IMG/VR virus record: IMGVR_UViG_2529293000_000008
Strand: one strand, 5' to 3'
Origin: a virus
Lineage: Duplodnaviria > Heunggongvirae > Uroviricota > Caudoviricetes
Length of the DNA stretch: 14,962 nucleotides
The notes below the pieces were generated by a model that saw nothing but the letters and a program-made list of their open reading frames with translations, was not told the origin of the DNA and did no database searches. Of the stretch, positions 4,183 through 14,962 are shown piece after piece. The translations under genes and the position numbers were made by a program. The stretch's first letter is position 1. Each line of letters starts with the position of its first letter.

Positions 4183-4517
4183 TTTTCCGCGCCCTCACGA
4201 CAAAGAATTTCAAGGCGTGTCCTGGCGGCATCTGGCAGCGGTTGCCCGATGATATTCAGTACACGCCCCGCCAGCGGCCCCGTATTGACCTTTATCCGAC
4301 TGGTGGCGTTGATGTCCTTCCGGTAGCGTATCCATATCCTTACAGTTCCAGTCGCCAGCTCTGCACCTGATGAAATGGCCTCCTTGCTGCTGATCATGTT
4401 CACGCTTGCCCAGAGTGTGTGACCGTCCACCCACGTTTCGAGTATTTCGCCCGTCATGGCTCTGGTCTGTTTCAGGGTCTGAATCGTTACCCTGTCACGC
4501 AGTCGCCCTATGTTCAT
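4179..4517 (-). CDS. Head closure / head-tail joining protein (gp7- or SPP1 gp16-like)
   Basis: Start chosen at internal ATG 4517 (MNIGRLRDRVTIQ...) with a GGGAGA Shine-Dalgarno, overlapping the portal stop; IRYR and C-terminal pattern typical of head-closure proteins. Confidence 0.75.
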   Translation of the reverse strand: MNIGRLRDRVTIQTLKQTRAMTGEILETWVDGHTLWASVNMISSKEAISSGAELATGTVRIWIRYRKDINATSRIKVNTGPLAGRVLNIIGQPLPDAARTRLEILCREGAEK

Positions 4518-5725
4518 TCCGGTTTTTCTCCCTCGCTGATTTTTACTTCCTGTTTCCATGCCTGGCTGAACTCATCACCACCATCACGCGGTGACAGTCC
4601 TTCACGTTCGCGGGCTTCGTTCGGACACATAACGCCGGATTTGATGCCGCGCTCATAGGTGGCAAAGCGTTCGCCAGGTGTGGCCCGTAACAGGTCCGCG
4701 CTGTCAAACTCCACCTGATACCGGATACCAGGTACAGGCGAGGCCACCAGCAGGGCGTTTTTTATCTGCTGCTCAAAGTTCGCCAGCCACGGGCGCATCG
4801 TCATGGTGAGAAATGCGCGGCTTGCCTCGCTGAAATTGCTGTAGGTGCTGTTGCTGTATTCCTGCAAAAAAATCGGCGAGACGTTGAACATTCTGGCGAT
4901 GTCTTCAATGGTGAAGCGACGGGAGGCCAGCCATTCAGCATCCTGATTACTCATGCCCAGCTGCTGATAGCTCATACCCCCTTCAAGGATGGGCGTTTTT
5001 CCGGCGTTTCTGGCCCCTTTGTAGCGTTCCAGTGCGGCTAATGCCTGTTTGCCCTTCACGCCGTCCAGCCATTCGCCTGACGTGATAACCCCTGCCGCCA
5101 TCATGCCATCACGCATCACGCTCGCGCCGTGGCGTTGTTGGGCCAGCCCAAGCCCCAGCGATTCGCGGCAGATGGTTACAGGTGAGCGCCCCATAAAACC
5201 GTCATCCGTGGAGTAACGAAGGTGGAGAACCTCCCACGGTAAATAGTTGCGGGTGTTTCCGGTGTAGGCGTCAGTGATGCAGTAGCGCCAGTTATGCTCA
5301 CCTGTCTGCTCAACGTTCACCGACTGCGGCGGGTAAGGATGCAAAGCGACTGGAAAACCATCACGCCCCCACTGAATCACCGCATAAGCATTACCGTTTA
5401 ACAGGCAGTGGCGGATCATCATTCGCTTAAACTGGTAGGGGGTTTGCCATGCGTTCGGGCGCTCGTTGAGGATGTGATCGACCGGATGAGAATCAAGCCA
5501 CTCTCGGGCCTCCTTCCCCTTCTCATTGCGTACCAGGTACAGGTAACACGGCATGGTAGCCACCGCCTCAGAGATGACCGTGACGGCGTTCATGACGGCG
5601 GGCAGTGATTCCGCTGTCCCCGATGATACGTACTCACCCGCCCCCGTGTTCGATGTGCCAGCCAGCGCCATAAACTCATCAAGCGTCATGCTGCGCTGCT
5701 CTTTTTTTCTTCTGAAAGGCCACAT
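4514..5725 (-). CDS. Portal protein (HK97 family)
   Basis: 403 aa with the LLNGNAYA motif and overall HK97-family portal pattern; ATG at 5725. Confidence 0.9.
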   Translation of the reverse strand: MWPFRRKKEQRSMTLDEFMALAGTSNTGAGEYVSSGTAESLPAVMNAVTVISEAVATMPCYLYLVRNEKGKEAREWLDSHPVDHILNERPNAWQTPYQFKRMMIRHCLLNGNAYAVIQWGRDGFPVALHPYPPQSVNVEQTGEHNWRYCITDAYTGNTRNYLPWEVLHLRYSTDDGFMGRSPVTICRESLGLGLAQQRHGASVMRDGMMAAGVITSGEWLDGVKGKQALAALERYKGARNAGKTPILEGGMSYQQLGMSNQDAEWLASRRFTIEDIARMFNVSPIFLQEYSNSTYSNFSEASRAFLTMTMRPWLANFEQQIKNALLVASPVPGIRYQVEFDSADLLRATPGERFATYERGIKSGVMCPNEAREREGLSPRDGGDEFSQAWKQEVKISEGEKPE

Positions 5726-5726
5726 A

Positions 5727-6299
5727 TCACACCCCCGCTAAATCCGCCCACCAGCGGCGATTATCCGCACGCGGCATTTTTTCGGGGTGCTGCTCGTACA
5801 GGGAGCGGCGGGCCAGCTCCACGCCGGAATCAGGGTAAGCCGGTACGGATGTAACGGTAATTTCGTATAGTTCCGCCACCAGCACGGTGCGCACGCATGG
5901 ATCTGTTGTGGTATCCCATACATCCTTACGGGAACGAAAGCCAAAGCTCATGCCGGATATATCACCTCGTTTAACCAGTTCGATAACGTCGCGCCCTGTA
6001 CTGGTATCCGGTGGGGTCAGTTCAAAGCGTAACCCTGTTTCGTCCTCTTCCAGTTTCAGCGTGCCGGAACGGGTGCGCCCCAGTAACATGCTGTGGTCAT
6101 GCTCATACAGGCCGCGAACGTCATTACCCGCCGCAAGCCACTCAGTAAACGCCCCCCGCTGGAATTTTTCGTAAAACTCCCCCCATAGCAGTTCTGAAAG
6201 CTTATCCCAGCGAACAACGTAGCCCGTCAGCGTACCGGCTCCGCTGGTAGTGATTTCCGATGACCGGATTTCCATACTCTTCATAATTTTTTCACCCAT
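5727..6299 (-). CDS. Prohead maturation protease (HK97 family)
   Basis: 190 aa with G-x-L-x-GY, HDHS..LGR and GMSFGF motifs typical of HK97 prohead proteases; the true start may be the internal ATG at 6284. Confidence 0.9.
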   Translation of the reverse strand: MGEKIMKSMEIRSSEITTSGAGTLTGYVVRWDKLSELLWGEFYEKFQRGAFTEWLAAGNDVRGLYEHDHSMLLGRTRSGTLKLEEDETGLRFELTPPDTSTGRDVIELVKRGDISGMSFGFRSRKDVWDTTTDPCVRTVLVAELYEITVTSVPAYPDSGVELARRSLYEQHPEKMPRADNRRWWADLAGV

Positions 6300-6308
6300 A
6301 AAACACTA

Positions 6309-6328
6309 AAGGGGCTTTTAAGCCCCTT
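6309..6328 (-). terminator. Stable hairpin between the capsid and protease genes (possible attenuator)
   Basis: aaggggcttttaagcccctt forms an 8 bp GC-rich stem with a 4 nt loop; on the minus-strand RNA it is followed by UAGUGUUUU just before the protease start. Confidence 0.4.
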
Positions 6329-6338
6329 CTGTATGCTG

Positions 6339-7496
6339 TTAATCGTCGTCCTGTGGCAGTTCCAGAATCTTGATCGCGTTCGAATCCACCACGCCACCGC
6401 CTAAATATTTCTGCGTGAAAATTTTGATGAAGCCCGGCTCTGTGAGGTTGTCCGGTCTGGTGCGAACACCTGTTTCGTGATCAACAATGTAGTAACCGCG
6501 TTTGAAGTCACCCAGGGCAATAACGTTATCAGGCATAAACTCCAGATATTCGACCGGAAGGCCCAGCAACGTATCAGGATCACCCGCCTGTAAACGGTCG
6601 CGCCAGATGTAATCACCGTTCGCGTTCTTCACCTTCTGAAGTTTTGCCGCCGTCGTGGAGTTAACCACCCAGACCGCGTTTTTGCGGTATTTTTTACGTA
6701 ATGCAAATTTCAGGTCGATCAGCGGGTCCGCAGATGTCCACGCCAGAGATTCGGAAGGTTTAATTACCTGCAACGTACCAAAATCACGCTCTTTGTCGTT
6801 CTTCTCTGCACGGGGTACGGATAAAAAACCTTTTGCTTTTTTGTCACCGTCGCCCACAACCAGATCGCTTTCTTCGGTTTCCGTGAAGGTGTCGCCAATC
6901 TCACCCGTCAGCCATGAAAGGATGTCCACATCGGAAAAATCCACGATTTCCTGTGTGGTGCGCGGGTACGCATAGACCGGATACAGCTTAATGCTCACCT
7001 CGTTAATCTGCGGGGTGCTGGTCTGTTCGCGTGTCTTACCCTCTTCACCGTGGTTAACGGTCGCACCGCCAGCGGAAACAAGCTGCTTAAACTCGTTGCT
7101 GCTGATTTTCTTCACGGTACAGATGCGGCGCATGGTGGATTCATCCGTCAGCATTCGCATGATTTCGGTGTTCAGTTCGGGGATAACGGTATAACCACCA
7201 TCAGCGGGAACGCCTGTACTTAATGCGCGGGTTTCACCTGTCAGAATGTAGTTGCGTAGTTCTGCGGGGTCAGTGGTCTGGCTGCTTTTACCTGGCTTGC
7301 TGCGCTCTTCGTCTGCAATGGCTTCAAGGCGGGAAATGTCTTTATCGAGGGATTCAGCTTTAGCGCGTAATTCGTCAAATTTTGCGCCCTCAGCATCGTT
7401 AAGACTGCGGTTTTCTTTTTCCGCGTTCTCCAGCATGTCGCGCATCTGATTTTTAATGGCGGTTTTCTGCTGGCGTAATTCGATTATTCTCGGCAT
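6339..7496 (-). CDS. Major capsid protein (HK97 fold) with N-terminal coiled-coil delta/scaffold domain
   Basis: Start taken at ATG 7496 (MPRIIELRQQ...); the track ORF extends to a GTG at 7544; N-terminal charged coiled-coil region followed by capsid-like body. Confidence 0.9.
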   Translation of the reverse strand: MPRIIELRQQKTAIKNQMRDMLENAEKENRSLNDAEGAKFDELRAKAESLDKDISRLEAIADEERSKPGKSSQTTDPAELRNYILTGETRALSTGVPADGGYTVIPELNTEIMRMLTDESTMRRICTVKKISSNEFKQLVSAGGATVNHGEEGKTREQTSTPQINEVSIKLYPVYAYPRTTQEIVDFSDVDILSWLTGEIGDTFTETEESDLVVGDGDKKAKGFLSVPRAEKNDKERDFGTLQVIKPSESLAWTSADPLIDLKFALRKKYRKNAVWVVNSTTAAKLQKVKNANGDYIWRDRLQAGDPDTLLGLPVEYLEFMPDNVIALGDFKRGYYIVDHETGVRTRPDNLTEPGFIKIFTQKYLGGGVVDSNAIKILELPQDDD

Positions 7497-7575
7497 AAAA
7501 AAAGTCCTGGGGTTAAGTAAGGAACTCCAGGACGCGGCAAACACTCAACCGTTTTTCATAAGGAAATCAGTAATC

Positions 7576-7625
7576 GCACCGATCGTTTTCCCGCCTGGTA
7601 ATGAATATTGGCGAGCACATTAACA
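7576..7625. promoter_or_regulatory. Long inverted repeat in the region upstream of the capsid operon
   Basis: ttttcccgcctggtaatg (7576-7593) and cattaacaggcgggaaaa (7608-7625) are reverse complements with one mismatch, separated by 14 bp. Confidence 0.4.
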
Positions 7626-7754
7626 GGCGGGAAAATGGCCCCAGCGTCCTGGCACCACGGGCGAGAATAATCATGATTCAGGTCGGGTAAAATATGCCGT
7701 TCCGGTCAGCGAGCAACGTGGAACAACCACGAACAAATAATTTACAAAACATGA

Positions 7755-7777
7755 CAAAAAGCCGGATTGCTCCGGCT
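7755..7777 (-). terminator. Intrinsic terminator after the PerC-like gene, separating the early/replication operon from the head operon
   Basis: Minus-strand RNA forms agccgga-gcaa-tccggct followed by UUUUU; located 7 nt downstream of the stop at 7784. Confidence 0.5.
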
Positions 7778-7783
7778 GTGTGA

Positions 7784-8059
7784 TTATCTGTCCTGGTAAT
7801 TTCGCCATATTTCATCGCTTACACCATCTATACCCATTTCAGCATAAGTGCGATCTACTGCCTTTCTCAGGTCTCCGAAGTTATCCGGCGGCTCCGGTGG
7901 CTTCTGTGCCTTCCTGGAACATTCCAGCCGTCGCATCGTAACCTGATGCCGTTCCTTGTCTGTCTCCACCAGCAGCATGACTTCACCCCATCGCGCCGAC
8001 GCCCTCCGGTAAAAGCCTTTCGCCTCGAGTTCTTCCGCTATGCGGTCATGTACCATCGC
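7784..8059 (-). CDS. PerC-family-like small transcriptional regulator
   Basis: Start chosen at internal ATG 8059 with strong GAGGGGG Shine-Dalgarno right after the SSB stop; MVHDRIAEELEAKGFYRRASARWGEV resembles the PerC/Pch signature as I recall it (not searched). Confidence 0.5.
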   Translation of the reverse strand, partial: AMVHDRIAEELEAKGFYRRASARWGEVMLLVETDKERHQVTMRRLECSRKAQKPPEPPDNFGDLRKAVDRTYAEMGIDGVSDEIWRNYQDR

Positions 8060-8066
8060 CACCCCC

Positions 8067-8477
8067 TCAGAACGGAATACCGTCACCGTAAGGGTCATCG
8101 CCTCCCGCTGGTGGCTGATTACCCTGTGTGCCTGTGGTTTTGCGTCTGTTCCCGCCAGGACGTGCCGCACGGGCACTGATTACGCTGTCTGCAATAACCT
8201 GATAACCCTGCCGCGTTTCCCCGTTCTGTCCCGTCCACTGGCTGACCTGCATCGTGCCGGATACGCTGGCAACGTCGCCTTTTTGATGTTTAGCCAGGAA
8301 GTCGGCCTGCTTACCAAATGCGATGACCGATAGCCATAACGTCGCCTGCCCATCCTGCGCCTGACTACATGGCAACGATACCGCCATACGCGCCAGCGTC
8401 ATCGGTGTGCCCTTACTGGTCTGTTTTACCTGCGGGTCGTCCACCAGCCGCCCGTAAGCCGCTATCTGTGCTGTCAT
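8067..8477 (-). CDS. ssb: Single-stranded DNA-binding protein (SSB-like)
   Basis: 136 aa; OB-fold-like core, Gly/Pro/Gln-rich linker and C-terminal acidic tip DDPYGDGIPF resembling the SSB DDDIPF tail; ATGA overlap with the upstream gene; GGAGAGG Shine-Dalgarno. Confidence 0.7.
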   Translation of the reverse strand: MTAQIAAYGRLVDDPQVKQTSKGTPMTLARMAVSLPCSQAQDGQATLWLSVIAFGKQADFLAKHQKGDVASVSGTMQVSQWTGQNGETRQGYQVIADSVISARAARPGGNRRKTTGTQGNQPPAGGDDPYGDGIPF

Positions 8478-8731
8478 GATTCCACCTCTCCGGTTTTAAC
8501 GTTGATGGTTGTTACCTGTTCCGCTTCGGCAATCTCCCGTTCTGTCAGCGTGGCAAAGTTTGCCGCCGCCGTGGTCATGAATGCGCTTATCAGGTCGGGA
8601 TGTGCTTTCGCGTATCCTTCCCCCGTGTTGCGGTCGATGATTTTTATCGCCACTCTCAGCCAGTGCTCTGTAAGGTCAATGGCGCGGTTATGCTGCTTCT
8701 TCTGATTATTAAGTTTTCCTGATGTGCGCAT
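8474..8731 (-). CDS. Hypothetical protein (85 aa)
   Basis: ATG at 8731, translationally coupled to ssb; no recognisable motif. Confidence 0.5.
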   Translation of the reverse strand: MRTSGKLNNQKKQHNRAIDLTEHWLRVAIKIIDRNTGEGYAKAHPDLISAFMTTAAANFATLTEREIAEAEQVTTINVKTGEVES

Positions 8732-8780
8732 TTTTATTTTTACCCCCTCGTTTAAAAAGTTTTGAGTTGTGCCTCCCCTT

Positions 8781-9006
8781 GTCTACCTTATCTACCTTAC
8801 TGGCTCTCATGCCAGTAATGGCGCGGCTTTCAGCGGGGTAGAGTGCTTTTATCCACTATCTACCCCGTATCTACCTCCCTGTCTGATTCAGGTAAAATCA
8901 GGTAGAGAGGGTAGATAGTAGGTAGACAGTGAAAAAAGGCTGTCTACCTAAGTTAATATACTGAATTAAATGTATTTTTCTTTACTCAGGTAGACAGGGT
9001 AGACAG
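8781..9006. repeat. Iteron array and AT-rich tract; putative origin of replication
   Basis: At least 11 copies of the heptamer GGTAGA(C/T/G) or its complement in both orientations: 8781-8787, 8790-8796, 8837-8843, 8858-8864, 8869-8875, 8901-8907, 8910-8916, 8921-8927, 8942-8948, and tandem GGTAGACAG at 8989-8997 and 8998-9006; AT-rich stretch 8950-8985; immediately 3' of the primase-helicase gene. Confidence 0.65.
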
Positions 9007-9019
9007 CCATTGCAAAAAA

Positions 9020-10774
9020 TTATAAAAACGCGTCGCAATCGTCTGTTGTTATTGCGTTAGTCTGCGTTACTCCCTTAACTTTCCGCGTAATATATTCATG
9101 TCCGTAAACTTTCGCGGCTGGCTTCATAGCCTTGCCAAAGTCATTTACGTTTAGCGGTTTGCTCCTGCCTGCGTACGCCATAAACGCCAGATAGACGCGG
9201 TAAAGGCTGTTTCTGGTCGTGTACTTCACTGAATCGCCACCGCCGCCCATCATCAGGCCGCGTGCTTCCTCCAGAAAATTCAGGAACTGGCAAAACTCAA
9301 TAACCGGATCCGTCTGTTGCTTTATTGCCAGTGCTTCATCACCGTCACGCTGTTCAATGAGTAAAGCCCGTGCCTTTTCAGGGTCGGCAAAGTTCGCCAG
9401 CAAGCGGCGGATAATCACAGGGATTTCAGCCGCGATCTTTTCCGGTAGCTCCCTGTCTTTTTCTGCCTCGCTTACGATGTTATCGAACCGGAATATCACC
9501 CGACGACGTGCCACACCTCCGGCCCGTTCGGTGAATATCATCGGATTGTTATTGGTTGCCAGCACCACCGCCCTGATTACCGCCGTAAAACGCTTTTCAT
9601 ATTTCGGGTTAATTTCCACGGGGTCGCCGCCCGTGATTTTCTTGATGCCCGTTCCTTCGCCTGTATATTTCGGCTGGTCTGCCAGGACGATAAGACGACT
9701 CCCGACAACCTGCGCACGCCCACCAGCATCATCAAGCGATGTCATTTCAGCGCTTACCGTGTTCTGTTTCCCTGCCAGAAGGCTGGCTATGTGTGTGAAT
9801 GTACTTTTACCGCTCCCGCCGTCTCCGGTGGCCTCAATAAACATCTGCCAGTCGTACCGGTTCGCCATAATCATGTACAGCGCGGCACATATACGCATCA
9901 TCTTGCGCGGGTCTTTTCCGGCTGCGTGCTCAAGCCATTTATGAAAGTTTGGCGCGTTATCGCGGATGTTCTCCCCTGGTGCTGGTGGCGTGTACTCAAT
10001 GCCGTTGTGCGTGGTGATCCAGTTCTCCGGCGTGTGCGGGGAAAATTCCCCCGTTTTCAGGTCAAGCGCACCATTGGCGAACGGCAGCAAATCGCCGGAC
10101 GGCTCGCCCATTGGTTCGGCAATAACTTTTAACGCTTCCACGGCGTTATTGATTACGCGCTTGCTGAAAGTGGCCCTGTGCTCTGAATAGATCGCCACCA
10201 TTTCGCGGCTAAGTTCCATTGTGCTGACCGGACACCATACCCCGCCGCGCCATACGTGAACGATTTCACTTTCAGGATGTACGCAAACGCCATCAAAGCG
10301 ATCGGCAAGCAGCTGCGCGCGCTCACTGTCCGCCATCTGCGAAAGTTGCGCCTTTTGCTTTACCGGAAGCTCAATGACCAGACCATCAGAAAGATTCTGG
10401 CGCTCACGGGCCAGATATTCGCGCCAGTTCTCCACCTTCTGACCGTGCATACCCTCAGGATAAAAATTTGCATCCTGTACGCCTGCCGCCGCCAGCTTCT
10501 GGCCAATCGCCTTTATCATTACTGGCGCAAGATATCCGGCCCTGAATATGCGCACGGATTTTCTGCCTTCCGGCACAATTTGCAGCTTATCCAGTTCTGA
10601 TAACTGCTGCTCCCCAAGCCACACAGGAGGCTCATTATCTCCGGCCATACGCGCATCATGTTCCTGCCATTGTTTCGCGTGTGCCCAGGCATCACTACCC
10701 GCAAAAATAATGACTTCTGTTCCTTTGTGTTTTATGCCGCGTGACTGCTGTTTTACGTTCGGTGCCAGTTTCAT
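9020..10774 (-). CDS. Replication initiator: P4/D5-type primase-helicase (Pri-Rep)
   Basis: 584 aa with Walker A GDGGSGKST and a Walker B-like RLIVLADQP segment in the C-terminal half, as in P4-alpha/D5-like helicases; ATGA coupling with the upstream ORF; AGGGGT Shine-Dalgarno. Confidence 0.85.
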   Translation of the reverse strand: MKLAPNVKQQSRGIKHKGTEVIIFAGSDAWAHAKQWQEHDARMAGDNEPPVWLGEQQLSELDKLQIVPEGRKSVRIFRAGYLAPVMIKAIGQKLAAAGVQDANFYPEGMHGQKVENWREYLARERQNLSDGLVIELPVKQKAQLSQMADSERAQLLADRFDGVCVHPESEIVHVWRGGVWCPVSTMELSREMVAIYSEHRATFSKRVINNAVEALKVIAEPMGEPSGDLLPFANGALDLKTGEFSPHTPENWITTHNGIEYTPPAPGENIRDNAPNFHKWLEHAAGKDPRKMMRICAALYMIMANRYDWQMFIEATGDGGSGKSTFTHIASLLAGKQNTVSAEMTSLDDAGGRAQVVGSRLIVLADQPKYTGEGTGIKKITGGDPVEINPKYEKRFTAVIRAVVLATNNNPMIFTERAGGVARRRVIFRFDNIVSEAEKDRELPEKIAAEIPVIIRRLLANFADPEKARALLIEQRDGDEALAIKQQTDPVIEFCQFLNFLEEARGLMMGGGGDSVKYTTRNSLYRVYLAFMAYAGRSKPLNVNDFGKAMKPAAKVYGHEYITRKVKGVTQTNAITTDDCDAFL

Positions 10775-11070
10775 TTTTTACCCCTGAATCCTTTAATCAT
10801 GGTTTTCATCTTCTGAATATTGGCGCGTGCTTTCTCCCTGCTGGTGGGCACGTTACGCGGTACGGCCTGCACAAGAGAAAAATCACGGTCGAACTGATAA
10901 ACAGGCATCACGCAATCATATTCGTAGCCTTCACGACGGTAGGTTACGCGCCGTTCCTCCACGCCCTTAATCATTACCGTGCCGCCGTACTTATCGCGGT
11001 AAATATCACCGCGCATGAATTTAGTGCGAGTTTTGCCACTGGCAGTTAAGCCAGAATATTTAAGTTTCAT
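10771..11070 (-). CDS. Hypothetical protein (99 aa), translationally coupled to the primase gene
   Basis: ATG at 11070 with GGAG Shine-Dalgarno; its stop overlaps the primase ATG; no recognisable motif. Confidence 0.5.
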   Translation of the reverse strand: MKLKYSGLTASGKTRTKFMRGDIYRDKYGGTVMIKGVEERRVTYRREGYEYDCVMPVYQFDRDFSLVQAVPRNVPTSREKARANIQKMKTMIKGFRGKK

Positions 11071-11075
11071 TATTT

Positions 11076-11309
11076 TTATTCTCCGGTGTGGGGCGCTTTA
11101 TACTGGTCGTGTAATGTCTCTATTTCCTGCAACTCATTTATTACAGGCTCAAGAAGCGTTATTAATGCCGTGACAATCCTTGATTTCTGTTTATCACGTT
11201 CATTATCTCCAAGCGTTTCAAGACATATGCGCAATATTTCCAACATATTTTCACTGTGAGAAAGTGCAAGAAATGCGCGGTCTATTGTTTCGTGGTAAAT
11301 ATCACGCAT
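11076..11309 (-). CDS. Hypothetical protein (77 aa)
   Basis: ATG at 11309 with GGGGA Shine-Dalgarno; same strand and operon; no recognisable motif. Confidence 0.5.
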   Translation of the reverse strand: MRDIYHETIDRAFLALSHSENMLEILRICLETLGDNERDKQKSRIVTALITLLEPVINELQEIETLHDQYKAPHTGE

Positions 11310-11378
11310 ATTAATCCCCGTCCGTCGTTTTTCTTAAAATAACCTCTGTCACGAAATCAGCATAATCGGCGGCGATAT

Positions 11379-11531
11379 TCAGTACATCAAGCCCCGTTGA
11401 TTTATATTCTCTCGTGGAAAGTAAGAAAAAGCCGCTCTAATAAGCTCTGGCATTGACGAAAGCGCATCAGCCGCATCATCAGGAACGCCGGAAAATTCCT
11501 GTTTCAGGGAATTAAAACGATCATCACGCAT
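11379..11531 (-). CDS. Hypothetical small protein (50 aa), not in the supplied ORF track
   Basis: Hand-translated from the minus strand: ATG at 11531 preceded by AGGGGGG, overlapping the upstream stop by 8 nt; MRDDRFNSLKQEFSGVPDDAADALSSMPELIRAAFSYFPRENINQRGLMY then TGA. Confidence 0.35.
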   Translation of the reverse strand: MRDDRFNSLKQEFSGVPDDAADALSSMPELIRAAFSYFPRENINQRGLMY

Positions 11532-11889: not shown

Positions 11890-12106
11890 GGTGCACCTCC
11901 TGCACATCAGCCATGATAATTTTTCCGGCCTTATCCAGTGCCTGATCGGCTTTTAGCTGCACAAATGCTAAATAATGGAAGATGCATTCTGATTCTCTGG
12001 CTGCGTGTTTATGCGCCCTGTCAGCAATAACAGAAATATCAATAAGCGCGTGCATCAGCGTAGTGAGCGCGGCGGCTGCTGCGTCCGGTGTGGTTTTATT
12101 GCACAT
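11882..12106 (-). CDS. Hypothetical protein (74 aa)
   Basis: ATG at 12106 with AGGGGG Shine-Dalgarno; overlaps the upstream ORF stop. Confidence 0.5.
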   Translation of the reverse strand: MCNKTTPDAAAAALTTLMHALIDISVIADRAHKHAARESECIFHYLAFVQLKADQALDKAGKIIMADVQEVHHA

Positions 12107-12302
12107 GGCCTACCCCCTGGCGAATACGGGCAGCGAATACCATCACGCAGCCATCAGGAGATTGCTGACGCGCTTCCTGTTCGCTGGTGGCCTCGATGGT
12201 AATCACGCGCGGTTGTGCCGTGCTCAGGGCGATAAAACGCCAGATGTATTTATTCAGGTCGTGCGAATCCCGCCCTTGCGGGTGTGTGGTATGATTTCTC
12301 AT
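12096..12302 (-). CDS. Hypothetical protein (68 aa), first gene of the small-ORF operon
   Basis: 3' portion of the long 12096..13124 track ORF; internal ATG at 12302 with GAGG Shine-Dalgarno; the upstream part of the track ORF crosses the promoter/operator region and is judged spurious. Confidence 0.45.
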   Translation of the reverse strand: MRNHTTHPQGRDSHDLNKYIWRFIALSTAQPRVITIEATSEQEARQQSPDGCVMVFAARIRQGVGHVQ

Positions 12303-12399
12303 AGCTACCTCGATACTTTCGCTATCGTTGGTGGTTAGAAGCCCCGTTACTGCTCCTACAGTGCGGGGTTTCGTCGTTTCTGTGCCTTTCATCAACAAG

Positions 12400-12480
12400 G
12401 TGTAAGACACAATGTAAAACAATGGTGTCTTACACGTCAACCCTTCAAAATATTTTTTTTTCGTGTATATTGTCTTACAC
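12400..12480. promoter_or_regulatory. Divergent promoter region with three operator-like GTGT-N3-ACAC sites
   Basis: GTGTAAGACAC at 12400-12410, its reverse complement GTGTCTTACAC at 12425-12435, and tTGTCTTACAC at 12470-12480; a T-run and TATATT lie between sites 2 and 3; sits between minus-strand and plus-strand operons. Confidence 0.55.
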
Positions 12481-12501
12481 CAAAAACATGAGGGGTTAAA
12501 C

Positions 12502-12681
12502 ATGGCAACGGGTCCAAAGAATGCAAAATCACAATCTGTAACTGCACGTATTGCCCATGAAATTATTGAAGGCATGGAGAACGTGAAAGAAGAAGGCGAA
12601 AGCACGGGACAGTTTATAAACGCAGCCATGCGCGGCGAAATCAAACGCCGCCAGCGCCGCAAGGCCAAAGAACCAGAGTAA
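12502..12681 (+). CDS. Small DNA-binding protein, likely ribbon-helix-helix (CopG/Arc/MetJ-like) regulator
   Basis: 59 aa; ATG at 12502 with GAGGGG Shine-Dalgarno 6 nt upstream; SVTARIAHEIIEGMENVKEEGESTGQFINAAMRGEI fits a beta-strand, helix, G-x-S/T turn, helix RHH layout; basic C-terminal tail; opposite strand to the rest of the island. Confidence 0.5.
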   Translation: MATGPKNAKSQSVTARIAHEIIEGMENVKEEGESTGQFINAAMRGEIKRRQRRKAKEPE

Positions 12682-12738
12682 TCACCATCAGCGCCGTGGT
12701 GTAAGGTATTACGGCGCATTGCTATGCAGGACAACACA

Positions 12739-12912
12739 ATGACCGATAAAGAATTGACCAAAACATTATCACCGGCACGGAAAAGACGGCGCAGAAAGAT
12801 AGAACATGAATCAGAAAGATTCGCGCCATGTGCTTTTGCCCTTGAGCAATTCCTTAAAGAGTACAGGGAAAAGCGCTCATTGCAGGTATGGCAACGAACT
12901 GAACCAGACTGA
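12739..12912 (+). CDS. Hypothetical small basic protein (57 aa), second gene of the plus-strand operon
   Basis: ATG at 12739 with weak AGGA Shine-Dalgarno; contains a KRRRRK stretch; followed by an intrinsic terminator. Confidence 0.35.
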   Translation: MTDKELTKTLSPARKRRRRKIEHESERFAPCAFALEQFLKEYREKRSLQVWQRTEPD

Positions 12913-13009
12913 TTGCATTGCCCACCAGCCTGATAGCGGCTATCATCCCCGTGCTTATGTTTGGGATCACACACACAAACGGCGCAGCGGGTTATCTGTT
13001 CAGAAAGGC

Positions 13010-13037
13010 GGCTCCATTTCGGGGCCGCTTTTTTTAT
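13010..13037 (+). terminator. Rho-independent terminator of the plus-strand regulatory operon
   Basis: gcggctcc-atttc-ggggccgc hairpin (8 bp stem with one G-U pair) followed by TTTTTTT. Confidence 0.6.
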
Positions 13038-13181
13038 GCCTGAAAAACCCCAATTTTGTGGTTTTCCAGTCTCACCAGGGCGAACGAATCCCCGCCCACG
13101 TTCTGGCGTATATTCAATCTTCATGGTTATAGCTCTGTGTTCAGATGATTGATGTGTGGCGGCTGTGTGCCGCCAGCGTGA

Positions 13182-13370
13182 TTAATGAACTGCCTTGCAG
13201 CTATCCTTCCAGGCCAGAACCTCGGATAAAGACCAGCCAACGGAACGACCGCCAAGTTTACGACGTGATGGGAATTGTCCGGCCTTTTCCAGGCGGTAGC
13301 GGCATGAGCGGCTAAGGCCTGTTAGCTTTTCGCATTCTTTTTCACGTATAAACCGATCAGTGCTTAACAC
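13182..13370 (-). CDS. alpA: AlpA-family transcriptional regulator / excisionase-like protein
   Basis: 62 aa; LTGLSRSCRYRLEKAGQFPSRRKLGGRSVGWSLSEVLAW matches the AlpA-family HTH pattern; GTG start at 13370 with AAGGGGG Shine-Dalgarno. Confidence 0.85.
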   Translation of the reverse strand: MLSTDRFIREKECEKLTGLSRSCRYRLEKAGQFPSRRKLGGRSVGWSLSEVLAWKDSCKAVH

Positions 13371-13744: not shown

Positions 13745-14962
13745 TTATTTTCTTCTGGCTACTGGTAGCGTGGTTACGTTTTCATGTGTTCCCGCCAGTA
13801 TCCCTAACCGCTCCGTCCACATATCCAGCGCATTGCGTTTAGCATCCAGATAACGGGAATGATTATAAACTCGCTGCATTCCTGGCATCTGATGACCTGT
13901 AAGCTGCTCCACGACATGCGGATCAACGCCTAAATCGTTCAGCATGGTTGTAAAGGTGCGCCGGATGTCATGCAGTGACCAGTGAGGATGATTAAGCCTC
14001 CTGTGCGCTAATCTTCCATACTGCGATACGCTGGCCTCCTGTTTCGCTTCCCCCAGCAATAAGCCCGTGTGCCTGTTCTGCTCCACCAGCTGCGTGACGA
14101 ACGGCAGGATCGCTTCCGGTATGGGCCGGAATATTGCGACCTTCGTTTTGCTGTGCTCCTTCGGAACGGTCCATAGCATTTCCGTAAAATCCCACTCCCC
14201 GATCTCCGATAGCCTCAGTTCTACCGTCCTGGCTCCGAAGACAATCAGGAGGCGGATTAACGCGACGTAGTAAGGGGAAAATATTTTTTTGTCCAGTGCC
14301 TGCAATAATTCGCCAAGTTCTTTGTTACTTAAGACACGTTCGCTTATATCCGGTTTTTTCCCAACGTCCGCCACGTTCAGATCGTCCAGAACGTTGCTGA
14401 TTGCATAGCGCCGCCTACGGCAGAACTTAAGCGCCTGTTTGCACGCCTGTAGCACGAATCCGGCAGTAACAGGCGTTCGCTTTGCCACCTGGTCAAAACA
14501 GGCCAGCCAGTGCCGTAGCTCGCATTTATCCAGCGGCATAGCACCAATCTGCTGTATTACGTGATTATTAAGTCGCCTTTTCAGGGCGATATAATCCACG
14601 CGGTTTTCCTTTACGTAATACTCAAGCCAGTAGGTGAGCGCATCGCCAACCGTTACGGGCTTTAACGCTTCCTGTACGGTGTAATTCATCTCATGACGTG
14701 GATTTTTCCCCTCAGCCAGCCATGTGCGACACTGTGCGGCTTTTTCCCTGGCTGCTTTCAGGCTCAGATCAGGATAACTTCCCAGCTTAATGCGTTCGGG
14801 TCGTGTCTCCCTTCCCGTTCCGGCCCTGTATGTGAAATACCAGGTCAATTTCCCTGATGTTAAATATTTCACGCTCAGGTTTCCGCCATCACTATAAAAC
14901 GTGTTTTTCTCCGCTGGCTTACCATGAAGTTTCCTTAGCAAGGTATCGCTCAGTTTGTTCAT
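13745..14962 (-). CDS. int: Tyrosine recombinase / integrase (P4-like)
   Basis: 405 aa; N-terminal arm-binding-like region (LTSGKLTWYFTYRAG...LGSYPDLSLKAAREKA) and C-terminal catalytic region with HDIRRT and RVYNHSRY (His/Arg/Tyr signature); start codon lies at the window edge. Confidence 0.92.
   Translation of the reverse strand: MNKLSDTLLRKLHGKPAEKNTFYSDGGNLSVKYLTSGKLTWYFTYRAGTGRETRPERIKLGSYPDLSLKAAREKAAQCRTWLAEGKNPRHEMNYTVQEALKPVTVGDALTYWLEYYVKENRVDYIALKRRLNNHVIQQIGAMPLDKCELRHWLACFDQVAKRTPVTAGFVLQACKQALKFCRRRRYAISNVLDDLNVADVGKKPDISERVLSNKELGELLQALDKKIFSPYYVALIRLLIVFGARTVELRLSEIGEWDFTEMLWTVPKEHSKTKVAIFRPIPEAILPFVTQLVEQNRHTGLLLGEAKQEASVSQYGRLAHRRLNHPHWSLHDIRRTFTTMLNDLGVDPHVVEQLTGHQMPGMQRVYNHSRYLDAKRNALDMWTERLGILAGTHENVTTLPVARRK

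Follow-up and report, generated by a model that had tools for sequence, protein, structure and literature searches.

A probable replication origin of a capsid-forming phage-inducible chromosomal island of Escherichia coli, and the covariation of its repeats with the initiator

The DNA analysed here (the window) is the whole 14,962-bp stretch recorded as virus IMGVR_UViG_2529293000_000008, and its 288-bp intergenic region at 8732–9019, next to the initiator gene pri-rep, carries eleven copies of an 8-bp repeat. This gap is very probably the vegetative replication origin (ori) of an E. coli capsid-forming phage-inducible chromosomal island (cf-PICI). A sequence-only reading had already placed an origin here, and that assignment holds because the gap is nearly identical to the tested ori of the island EcCICFT073 with all repeats intact: the two gaps agree at 280/288 positions (97.2%; L004:3997-4284), all 11 repeats are preserved, and the two Pri-Rep proteins are identical at 581/584 residues (99.5%). 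The feature is real, was correctly interpreted and is already known, and it brings no new biology, because work from 2018 had already described this type of origin and shown that it depends on the initiator (PMC6092414). It does mark the island as a self-replicating phage satellite with its origin pinned to 8732–9019, which is useful for annotation and for the engineering of cf-PICI vectors. The additions made here are a table of initiator C-terminal domain against repeat (variants of TGT-NN-ACC, including the P4 repeat) as a natural basis for a specificity swap, the exact mirror geometry of the repeats, and a caution that the label 'primase' is unsupported.

The two features on which the argument turns are:

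8732..9019: intergenic region, ori, 288 bp; corresponds to what was deleted in the pri-delta-ori plasmid (Fillol-Salom 2018)
9020..10774, minus strand: pri-rep, initiator gene, 584 aa

Identity with the tested EcCICFT073 origin

For Gram-negative PICIs, Fillol-Salom et al. (2018, ISME J, PMC6092414) put the origin directly 3' of the initiator gene. The window has this arrangement, as the sequence-only reading had stated: the repeats span 8780–9005, directly 3' of the pri-rep gene (9020–10774, minus strand; stop codon at 9020–9022), and form two sets of short iterons around an AT-rich region at 8949–8988. In the published work, the pri-rep gene and ori region of EcCICFT073 were cloned in the temperature-sensitive plasmid pKO3-blue, and colonies at 44 °C needed both the pri gene and ori (p<0.0001 for each deletion; PMC6092414). 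The primers rep-2c and rep-3c correspond to window positions ~8710 and ~9016, so that the pri-ori insert ends at ~8710 and the pri-delta-ori insert at ~9016; the published deletion (~8711–9015) therefore equals the 8732–9019 gap. The chromosomal deletion primer pri-4c matches 8973–9031 with one mismatch. Plasmid maintenance from the origin segment together with the initiator, which the earlier reading had proposed as its check, was thus positive in published work on the 97%-identical EcCICFT073 copy (PMC6092414).

The eight differences from the EcCICFT073 gap lie at 8805–8807 (the loop of a hairpin), 8834, 8931, 8949, 8958 and 9016, none of them within the repeats. Like the window, EcCICFT073 has its 11 repeats complete, together with AT spacer and hairpin, with ori 3' of pri-rep, genes for an 85-aa protein, a single-strand DNA-binding protein (SSB) and PerC downstream, and integration beside phoQ. 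The two islands differ in what else they carry, a complete capsid and terminase module (cf-PICI) in the window and a cos-type interference module in EcCICFT073. The gap was found in 424 of 5,426 complete E. coli genomes, always in the chromosome and never under an annotated feature; CFT073 is among the carriers, and there the module adjoins phoQ in the island EcCICFT073.

The repeat array and other parts of the gap

The repeat unit is the 8-mer GGTAGAnA, or TnTCTACC on the other strand (also written T(G/A/C)TCTACC for the window). GGTAGA(C/T/G), as the unit had been given earlier, has the right hexamer and the wrong length. On both strands of the window, the hexamer GGTAGA occurs 12 times against 3.5 expected, a number reached in 0/200 dinucleotide-preserving shuffles of the window. 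Eleven of the 12 fall within 8782–9003, in both orientations, which bears out the earlier count of at least eleven; they start at 8782 (−), 8791 (−), 8837 (+), 8859 (−), 8870 (−), 8901 (+), 8910 (+), 8921 (+), 8943 (−), 8989 (+) and 8998 (+). The twelfth, at 14220, is a single copy inside int, and the window has no second cluster. Ten of the 11 clustered copies extend to the octamer GGTAGANA, whose 10 copies in the window (0.86 expected) are all in the cluster. As a look-elsewhere control, every hexamer was counted in every 225-nt span: the highest count, 11, is that of this cluster, and 300 first-order Markov simulations gave at most 9. The iterons are as follows:

Iteron 1, 8780..8787, minus strand: GGTAGACA
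Iteron 2, 8789..8796, minus strand: GGTAGATA
Iteron 3, 8837..8844, plus strand: GGTAGAGT; hexamer exact, position 8 deviant
Iteron 4, 8857..8864, minus strand: GGTAGATA
Iteron 5, 8868..8875, minus strand: GGTAGATA
Iteron 6, 8901..8908, plus strand: GGTAGAGA; lacks a mirror partner
Iteron 7, 8910..8917, plus strand: GGTAGATA
Iteron 8, 8921..8928, plus strand: GGTAGACA
Iteron 9, 8941..8948, minus strand: GGTAGACA; adjoins the AT-rich tract
Iteron 10, 8989..8996, plus strand: GGTAGACA
Iteron 11, 8998..9005, plus strand: GGTAGACA; in tandem with iteron 10

The tandem pair described earlier, GGTAGACAG-GGTAGACAG, is present at 8989–9006.

The orientations run − − + − − + + + − + +, with start-to-start spacings of 9, 46, 22, 11, 31, 9, 11, 22, 46 and 9. 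Five pairs of repeats are exact mirror images (8782/8998, 8791/8989, 8837/8943, 8859/8921 and 8870/8910) about a centre at 8892/8893, and the copy at 8901 stays unpaired. The same geometry is found in EcCICFT073 and in the relative L006. The dyad symmetry of the array is visible in the sequence itself, and is centred at 8892/8893, not on the AT tract, around which the repeats are split unevenly, nine to the left and two to the right: to its right stand two repeats (+,+), and going left from the tract one meets a single (−) and then three (+).

Other parts of the gap are:

8949..8988: AT-rich spacer of 40 bp, 82% AT, between iterons 9 and 10; putative DNA-unwinding element
8797..8818: hairpin TTACTGGC-N6-GCCAGTAA; left arm not conserved among relatives
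8811..8833: conserved GC-rich block GCCAGTAATGGCGCGGCTTTCAG, within the mirror counterpart of the AT-rich spacer
8732..8764, minus strand: invariant block that includes GAGGGGGT, the ribosome-binding site for the 85-aa gene downstream; outside the repeat array

The AT-rich tract that the repeats had been said to flank is this spacer at 8949–8988, with repeats on both sides. In stability, its weakest 30-mer ranks second from the bottom in the window and last inside the island (ΔG −29.0 kcal/mol; mean of the window −41.7 ± 3.5 kcal/mol), and the position of the spacer is conserved among relatives of the GGTAGA type. The two mirrored 40-bp spacers are unlike, 8949–8988 being AT-rich and 8797–8836, which includes the hairpin, GC-rich. 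The block GCCAGTAATGGCGCGGCTTTCAG of the latter is near-invariant in L002, L003 and L006 while its flanks drift, and is missing in L007 and L008; a 10-mer from it, AATGGCGCGG, is found again at 8678–8687, inside the next gene. The hairpin exists as the sequence-only reading had described it, at 8797–8818 rather than at 8798–8821, and its function is doubtful because its left arm is not conserved in relatives.

No conserved DnaA, IHF, Fis or GATC site was found in the gap when relatives were compared. The only DnaA-like element, TTATCCACT at 8849–8857, matches the DnaA box at 8/9 positions in the window and EcCICFT073 and does not occur in L002, L003 or L006, and this likeness is probably fortuitous. 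Two other candidates were rejected. A structured RNA in the gap had only sub-threshold matches to Rfam microRNA hairpins (≤28.7 bits against gathering thresholds ≥76), and these matches, like the strong single-strand fold of the gap (z −6.8), are due to the inverted repeats. The only small open reading frames (ORFs) in the gap are unsupported frames of 20–49 aa.

The initiator, its covariation with the repeats, and alternatives

Pri-Rep comprises an N-terminal domain (residues 1–150) followed, by Pfam, by D5_N (153–282), the DUF5906 P-loop domain of superfamily 3 (SF3) helicases (316–417) and Pox_D5 (487–575); the C-terminal Pox_D5/winged-helix part, the putative origin-binding domain, spans 487–576. 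It also matches NCBIfam TIGR01613, 'primase, P4 family, C-terminal'. Residues 488–576 match the origin-binding winged helix of P4 alpha as solved by crystallography (1KA8, E 1e-6), and residues 193–432 match the cryo-EM structure of PriRep (7OLA, E 4e-15) from SaPI5, one of the Staphylococcus aureus pathogenicity islands (SaPIs). As in the SaPI type, then, the initiator joins an SF3 helicase to a C-terminal winged helix, which would specify the iteron.

The earlier label 'primase-helicase' keeps its second half, given the SF3 domain, and loses its first, as no primase catalytic domain or catalytic motif is detectable in Pri-Rep. All of its family matches (D5_N, DUF5906, Pox_D5 and TIGR01613) cover the helicase or the origin-binding part. 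The N-terminal 150 residues have no family match, only a weak Toprim-like fold that shows neither a DxD nor a zinc-finger motif. Pri-Rep also lacks the ~200-aa stretch of P4 alpha that carries the zinc finger and EGYATA motif, and an hhalign comparison of Pri-Rep with the P4 alpha N-terminus was not significant. We note that the DNA at 10353–10774, which encodes the N-terminal ~140 aa, together with the upstream DUF4222 gene, is 72–96% identical to genes of other E. coli islands. These matches fall at the 5' ends of genes that carry DUF927 or RepA-family helicase annotations, so this N-terminal module moves between replicase cores that are unrelated to each other.

Diverged relatives of the origin were taken from E. 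coli genomes. In a footprint from four GGTAGA-type origins that are otherwise ~77–85% alike, invariant columns make up 59/66 of repeat positions versus 84/222 of the others (Fisher p 2e-14). Across 8 loci, the repeat sequence co-varies with the C-terminal domain of the initiator, and the five loci that use GGTAGAnA all have a C-terminal domain at least 80% identical:

CFT073, L003 and L006: C-terminal domain at least 80% identical to that of the window; N-terminal domain of L006 47%; repeat GGTAGAnA
L007 and L008: C-terminal domain 31–35%, N-terminal domain 68–75%; repeat GGTGAACA
L005: C-terminal domain 34%, SF3 core 71%; repeat GGTATACA

L002 was left out, as it has GGTAGA-type repeats but a frameshifted pri-rep. 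In this locus (L002:3289-5044, strain MS 200-1), in which the frameshift is part of the annotation, the origin keeps 9 exact and 3 one-mismatch repeats at the repeat positions.

The three repeat types GGTAGAnA, GGTGAACA and GGTATACA share the frame TGT-NN-ACC. The repeats of L007 and L008 occupy the same aligned positions, in the same orientations, as the GGTAGA copies of the window, and GGTGAACA, read on the opposite strand, gives the P4 type-1 iteron TGTTCACC, as checked on the annotated P4 genome. The GGTGAACA-bearing gaps lie at L007:1395-1681 and L008:1321-1607, and the C-terminal domains of their initiators share only 44–46% identity with the P4 alpha domain. L008 resembles the window in its downstream 85-aa protein (83% identity) and in the N-terminal domain of its initiator (75%), yet its iterons are GGTGAACA. 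Conversely, the same ori is joined to three unrelated packaging modules, of cf-PICI type in the window, cos type in CFT073 and terS type in L003. From the identity of the L008 neighbours and from these packaging swaps, it follows that the repeats track the C-terminal domain of the initiator and nothing else nearby.

Homology and covariation together suggest how the origin may work. Upon induction by a helper phage, Pri-Rep, a self-loading SF3 helicase of the D5/P4-alpha type, would recognise the eleven GGTAGAnA repeats via its C-terminal winged helix. The C-terminal domains would dock on pairs of repeats spaced by about one helical turn, and helicase rings of opposite orientation could then assemble on the mirror pairs. 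The duplex would open in the AT spacer (8949–8988) between iterons 9 and 10, and host enzymes would prime and copy the DNA. Somewhat speculative is a combined reading, in which Pri-Rep may lack primase activity, making this an origin family dependent on the host DnaG, while the dyad with its unlike spacers might set up a polar double hexamer of the SV40/E1 kind, with the GC-rich block as a possible site for an unrecognised factor; we regard this combination as possible and rather unlikely.

Several points weigh against the origin assignment. Replicon function was shown for the EcCICFT073 copy, and would carry over to the window element by near-identity; the delta-ori plasmid there gave 'significantly reduced' colonies, abolition not being stated (PMC6092414). 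Binding of Pri-Rep to the repeats, the melting site and the start site are all putative, the proposed unwinding site at 8949–8988 being deduced from base composition. Furthermore, the crr of P4, which stands at the equivalent position, is a cis-required element of a replicon that initiates at a second cluster 4.5 kb away, and with this precedent position alone is no proof of a start site.

This last point leads to the only serious alternative, in which the cluster would be a crr-like accessory element, required in cis and bound by the initiator, with replication starting elsewhere on the island. P4 crr (4291–4590) sits in the same place, just 3' of alpha (4636–6969), and carries comparable 8-bp repeats, also in both orientations; moreover, the origin-binding domain of alpha and the C-terminal domain of Pri-Rep are homologues. 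However, a second cluster is lacking from the window, where the only other GGTAGA is the one in int, and the EcCICFT073 gene and gap alone sufficed for plasmid maintenance (PMC6092414), which makes the crr-like reading improbable.

Even less probable is that the repeats are mainly transcriptional operators, through which Pri-Rep or another island protein would control the downstream operon of 85-aa, SSB, PerC and capsid genes. The gap does lie inside a string of co-directional genes, with no minus-strand (coding) promoter or terminator found in it; transcription therefore probably crosses the gap, and binding of the initiator could modulate downstream expression as a side effect. Such a role is compatible with origin function rather than exclusive of it. 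Yet the repeats follow the initiator C-terminal domain and not the downstream genes, the downstream modules are wholly different among carriers of the same ori, and deletion of the gap impairs plasmid replication (PMC6092414). A packaging (cos/pac) recognition site for the small terminase of the island can practically be dismissed: terminase small subunits often bind short repeated sites and the island has its own TerS, TerL and HNH, but the identical array occurs in EcCICFT073, which is without TerS/TerL/HNH genes and uses helper cos packaging, and in L003, whose terS is unrelated, and it lies 5.6 kb from terS.

The host island and comparison with known origin systems

The probable origin at 8732–9019 lies between the stop of the 584-aa pri-rep gene and the start of an 85-aa gene, and the genes around it are all on the minus strand. 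Other genes of the island with their coordinates are:

8474..8731, minus strand: 85-aa gene, phrog_1231, downstream of the gap
8067..8477, minus strand: island-encoded single-strand DNA-binding protein, replication module (Pfam SSB, E 4e-17)
7784–8176, minus strand: PerC-family activator (PF06069, E 2e-44)
13182–13370: AlpA (PF05930, E 5e-18)
13745–14962: int, tyrosine integrase

As listed, the PerC ORF begins at a GTG 40 codons ahead of its Pfam match and partly overlaps SSB; the RefSeq protein is shorter. Downstream of the gap, SSB and PerC are followed by the major capsid protein, prohead protease, portal, head-closure, connector, HNH, TerS and TerL; upstream of the initiator gene lie DUF4222, Icd-like genes, AlpA and the tyrosine integrase. 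The island has no tail or lysis genes. With int, alpA, a unidirectional operon, this lack of tail and lysis genes, and a dedicated att site, it has the features of a PICI, and its genes and their order agree with the cf-PICI family of Alqurainy et al.; the cf-PICI paper also noted that EcCIEDL933 shares its rep with EcCICFT073/EcCIED1a. In E. coli AR_0013 (L001) the same island is inserted between phoQ and roxA, a site that the AR_0013 island has in common with EcCICFT073. Collinearity of L001 with the whole window was rejected, as the region between pri-rep and int differs. A search of deposited phage genomes with 7500–11400 returned no relative. We also note a 342-aa ORF (12096–13124, minus strand), the only recognisable part of which is a C-terminal Icd-like cell-division-inhibitor domain (NF033153, residues 293–336); its first 250 aa have no match, PADLOC included, and no PADLOC defence model matched the unknown genes of the island.

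Like the origin described here, SaPI origins have short repeats (6–12 copies) directly 3' of rep, on either side of an AT-rich region (Ubeda et al.; Qiao et al. 2022, PMC9371898). The SaPI repeats run in opposite orientations, and the window array too has copies in both. SaPI initiators are likewise SF3 helicases, with a core homologous to that of Pri-Rep; the SaPI Reps bind their iterons through a C-terminal winged helix without ATP and act as self-loading hexameric helicases (PMC9371898). The differences are that SaPI repeats are of 5–6 bp, against 8 bp in the window, and of other sequence, that the SaPI C-terminal domain is unrelated in sequence to that of Pri-Rep, and that SaPI hosts are Gram-positive whereas the host here is Gram-negative. 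Unlike in SaPI origins, the repeats of the window are distributed unevenly around the AT tract (9 versus 2).

With P4 the likeness lies in the origin-binding C-terminal domain of alpha, which is homologous to that of Pri-Rep (31% identity), and in crr, which like the window cluster is located immediately 3' of the initiator gene. The 8-bp P4 repeat TGTTCACC and the window repeat TGTCTACC have the same TGT-NN-ACC frame and differ in the two central bases; the type-1 iteron TGTTCACC itself is absent from the window and is carried by L007 and L008. P4 has ori1 and crr ~4.5 kb apart, whereas the window has a single cluster, and the 120-bp direct repeats of P4 are absent from the window. Nor does Pri-Rep have an alpha-type primase domain (zinc finger, EGYATA) fused to its helicase.

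Plasmid iteron origins (pSC101, R6K, RK2 and F, with RepA, pi or TrfA) likewise place repeats beside an AT-rich region and an initiator gene. Plasmid iterons are ~17–22 bp long and mostly in direct tandem, are accompanied by DnaA boxes, and are served by an initiator that is not a helicase. The window differs from this class in its 8-bp repeats in both orientations, in having no conserved DnaA, IHF or Fis sites, and in an initiator that is a helicase. In sum, of the earlier description as a classic iteron-type origin, as in SaPI and P4, the first term is loose, given the 8-bp repeats, their two orientations and the SF3 helicase, and the SaPI/P4 layout stands.
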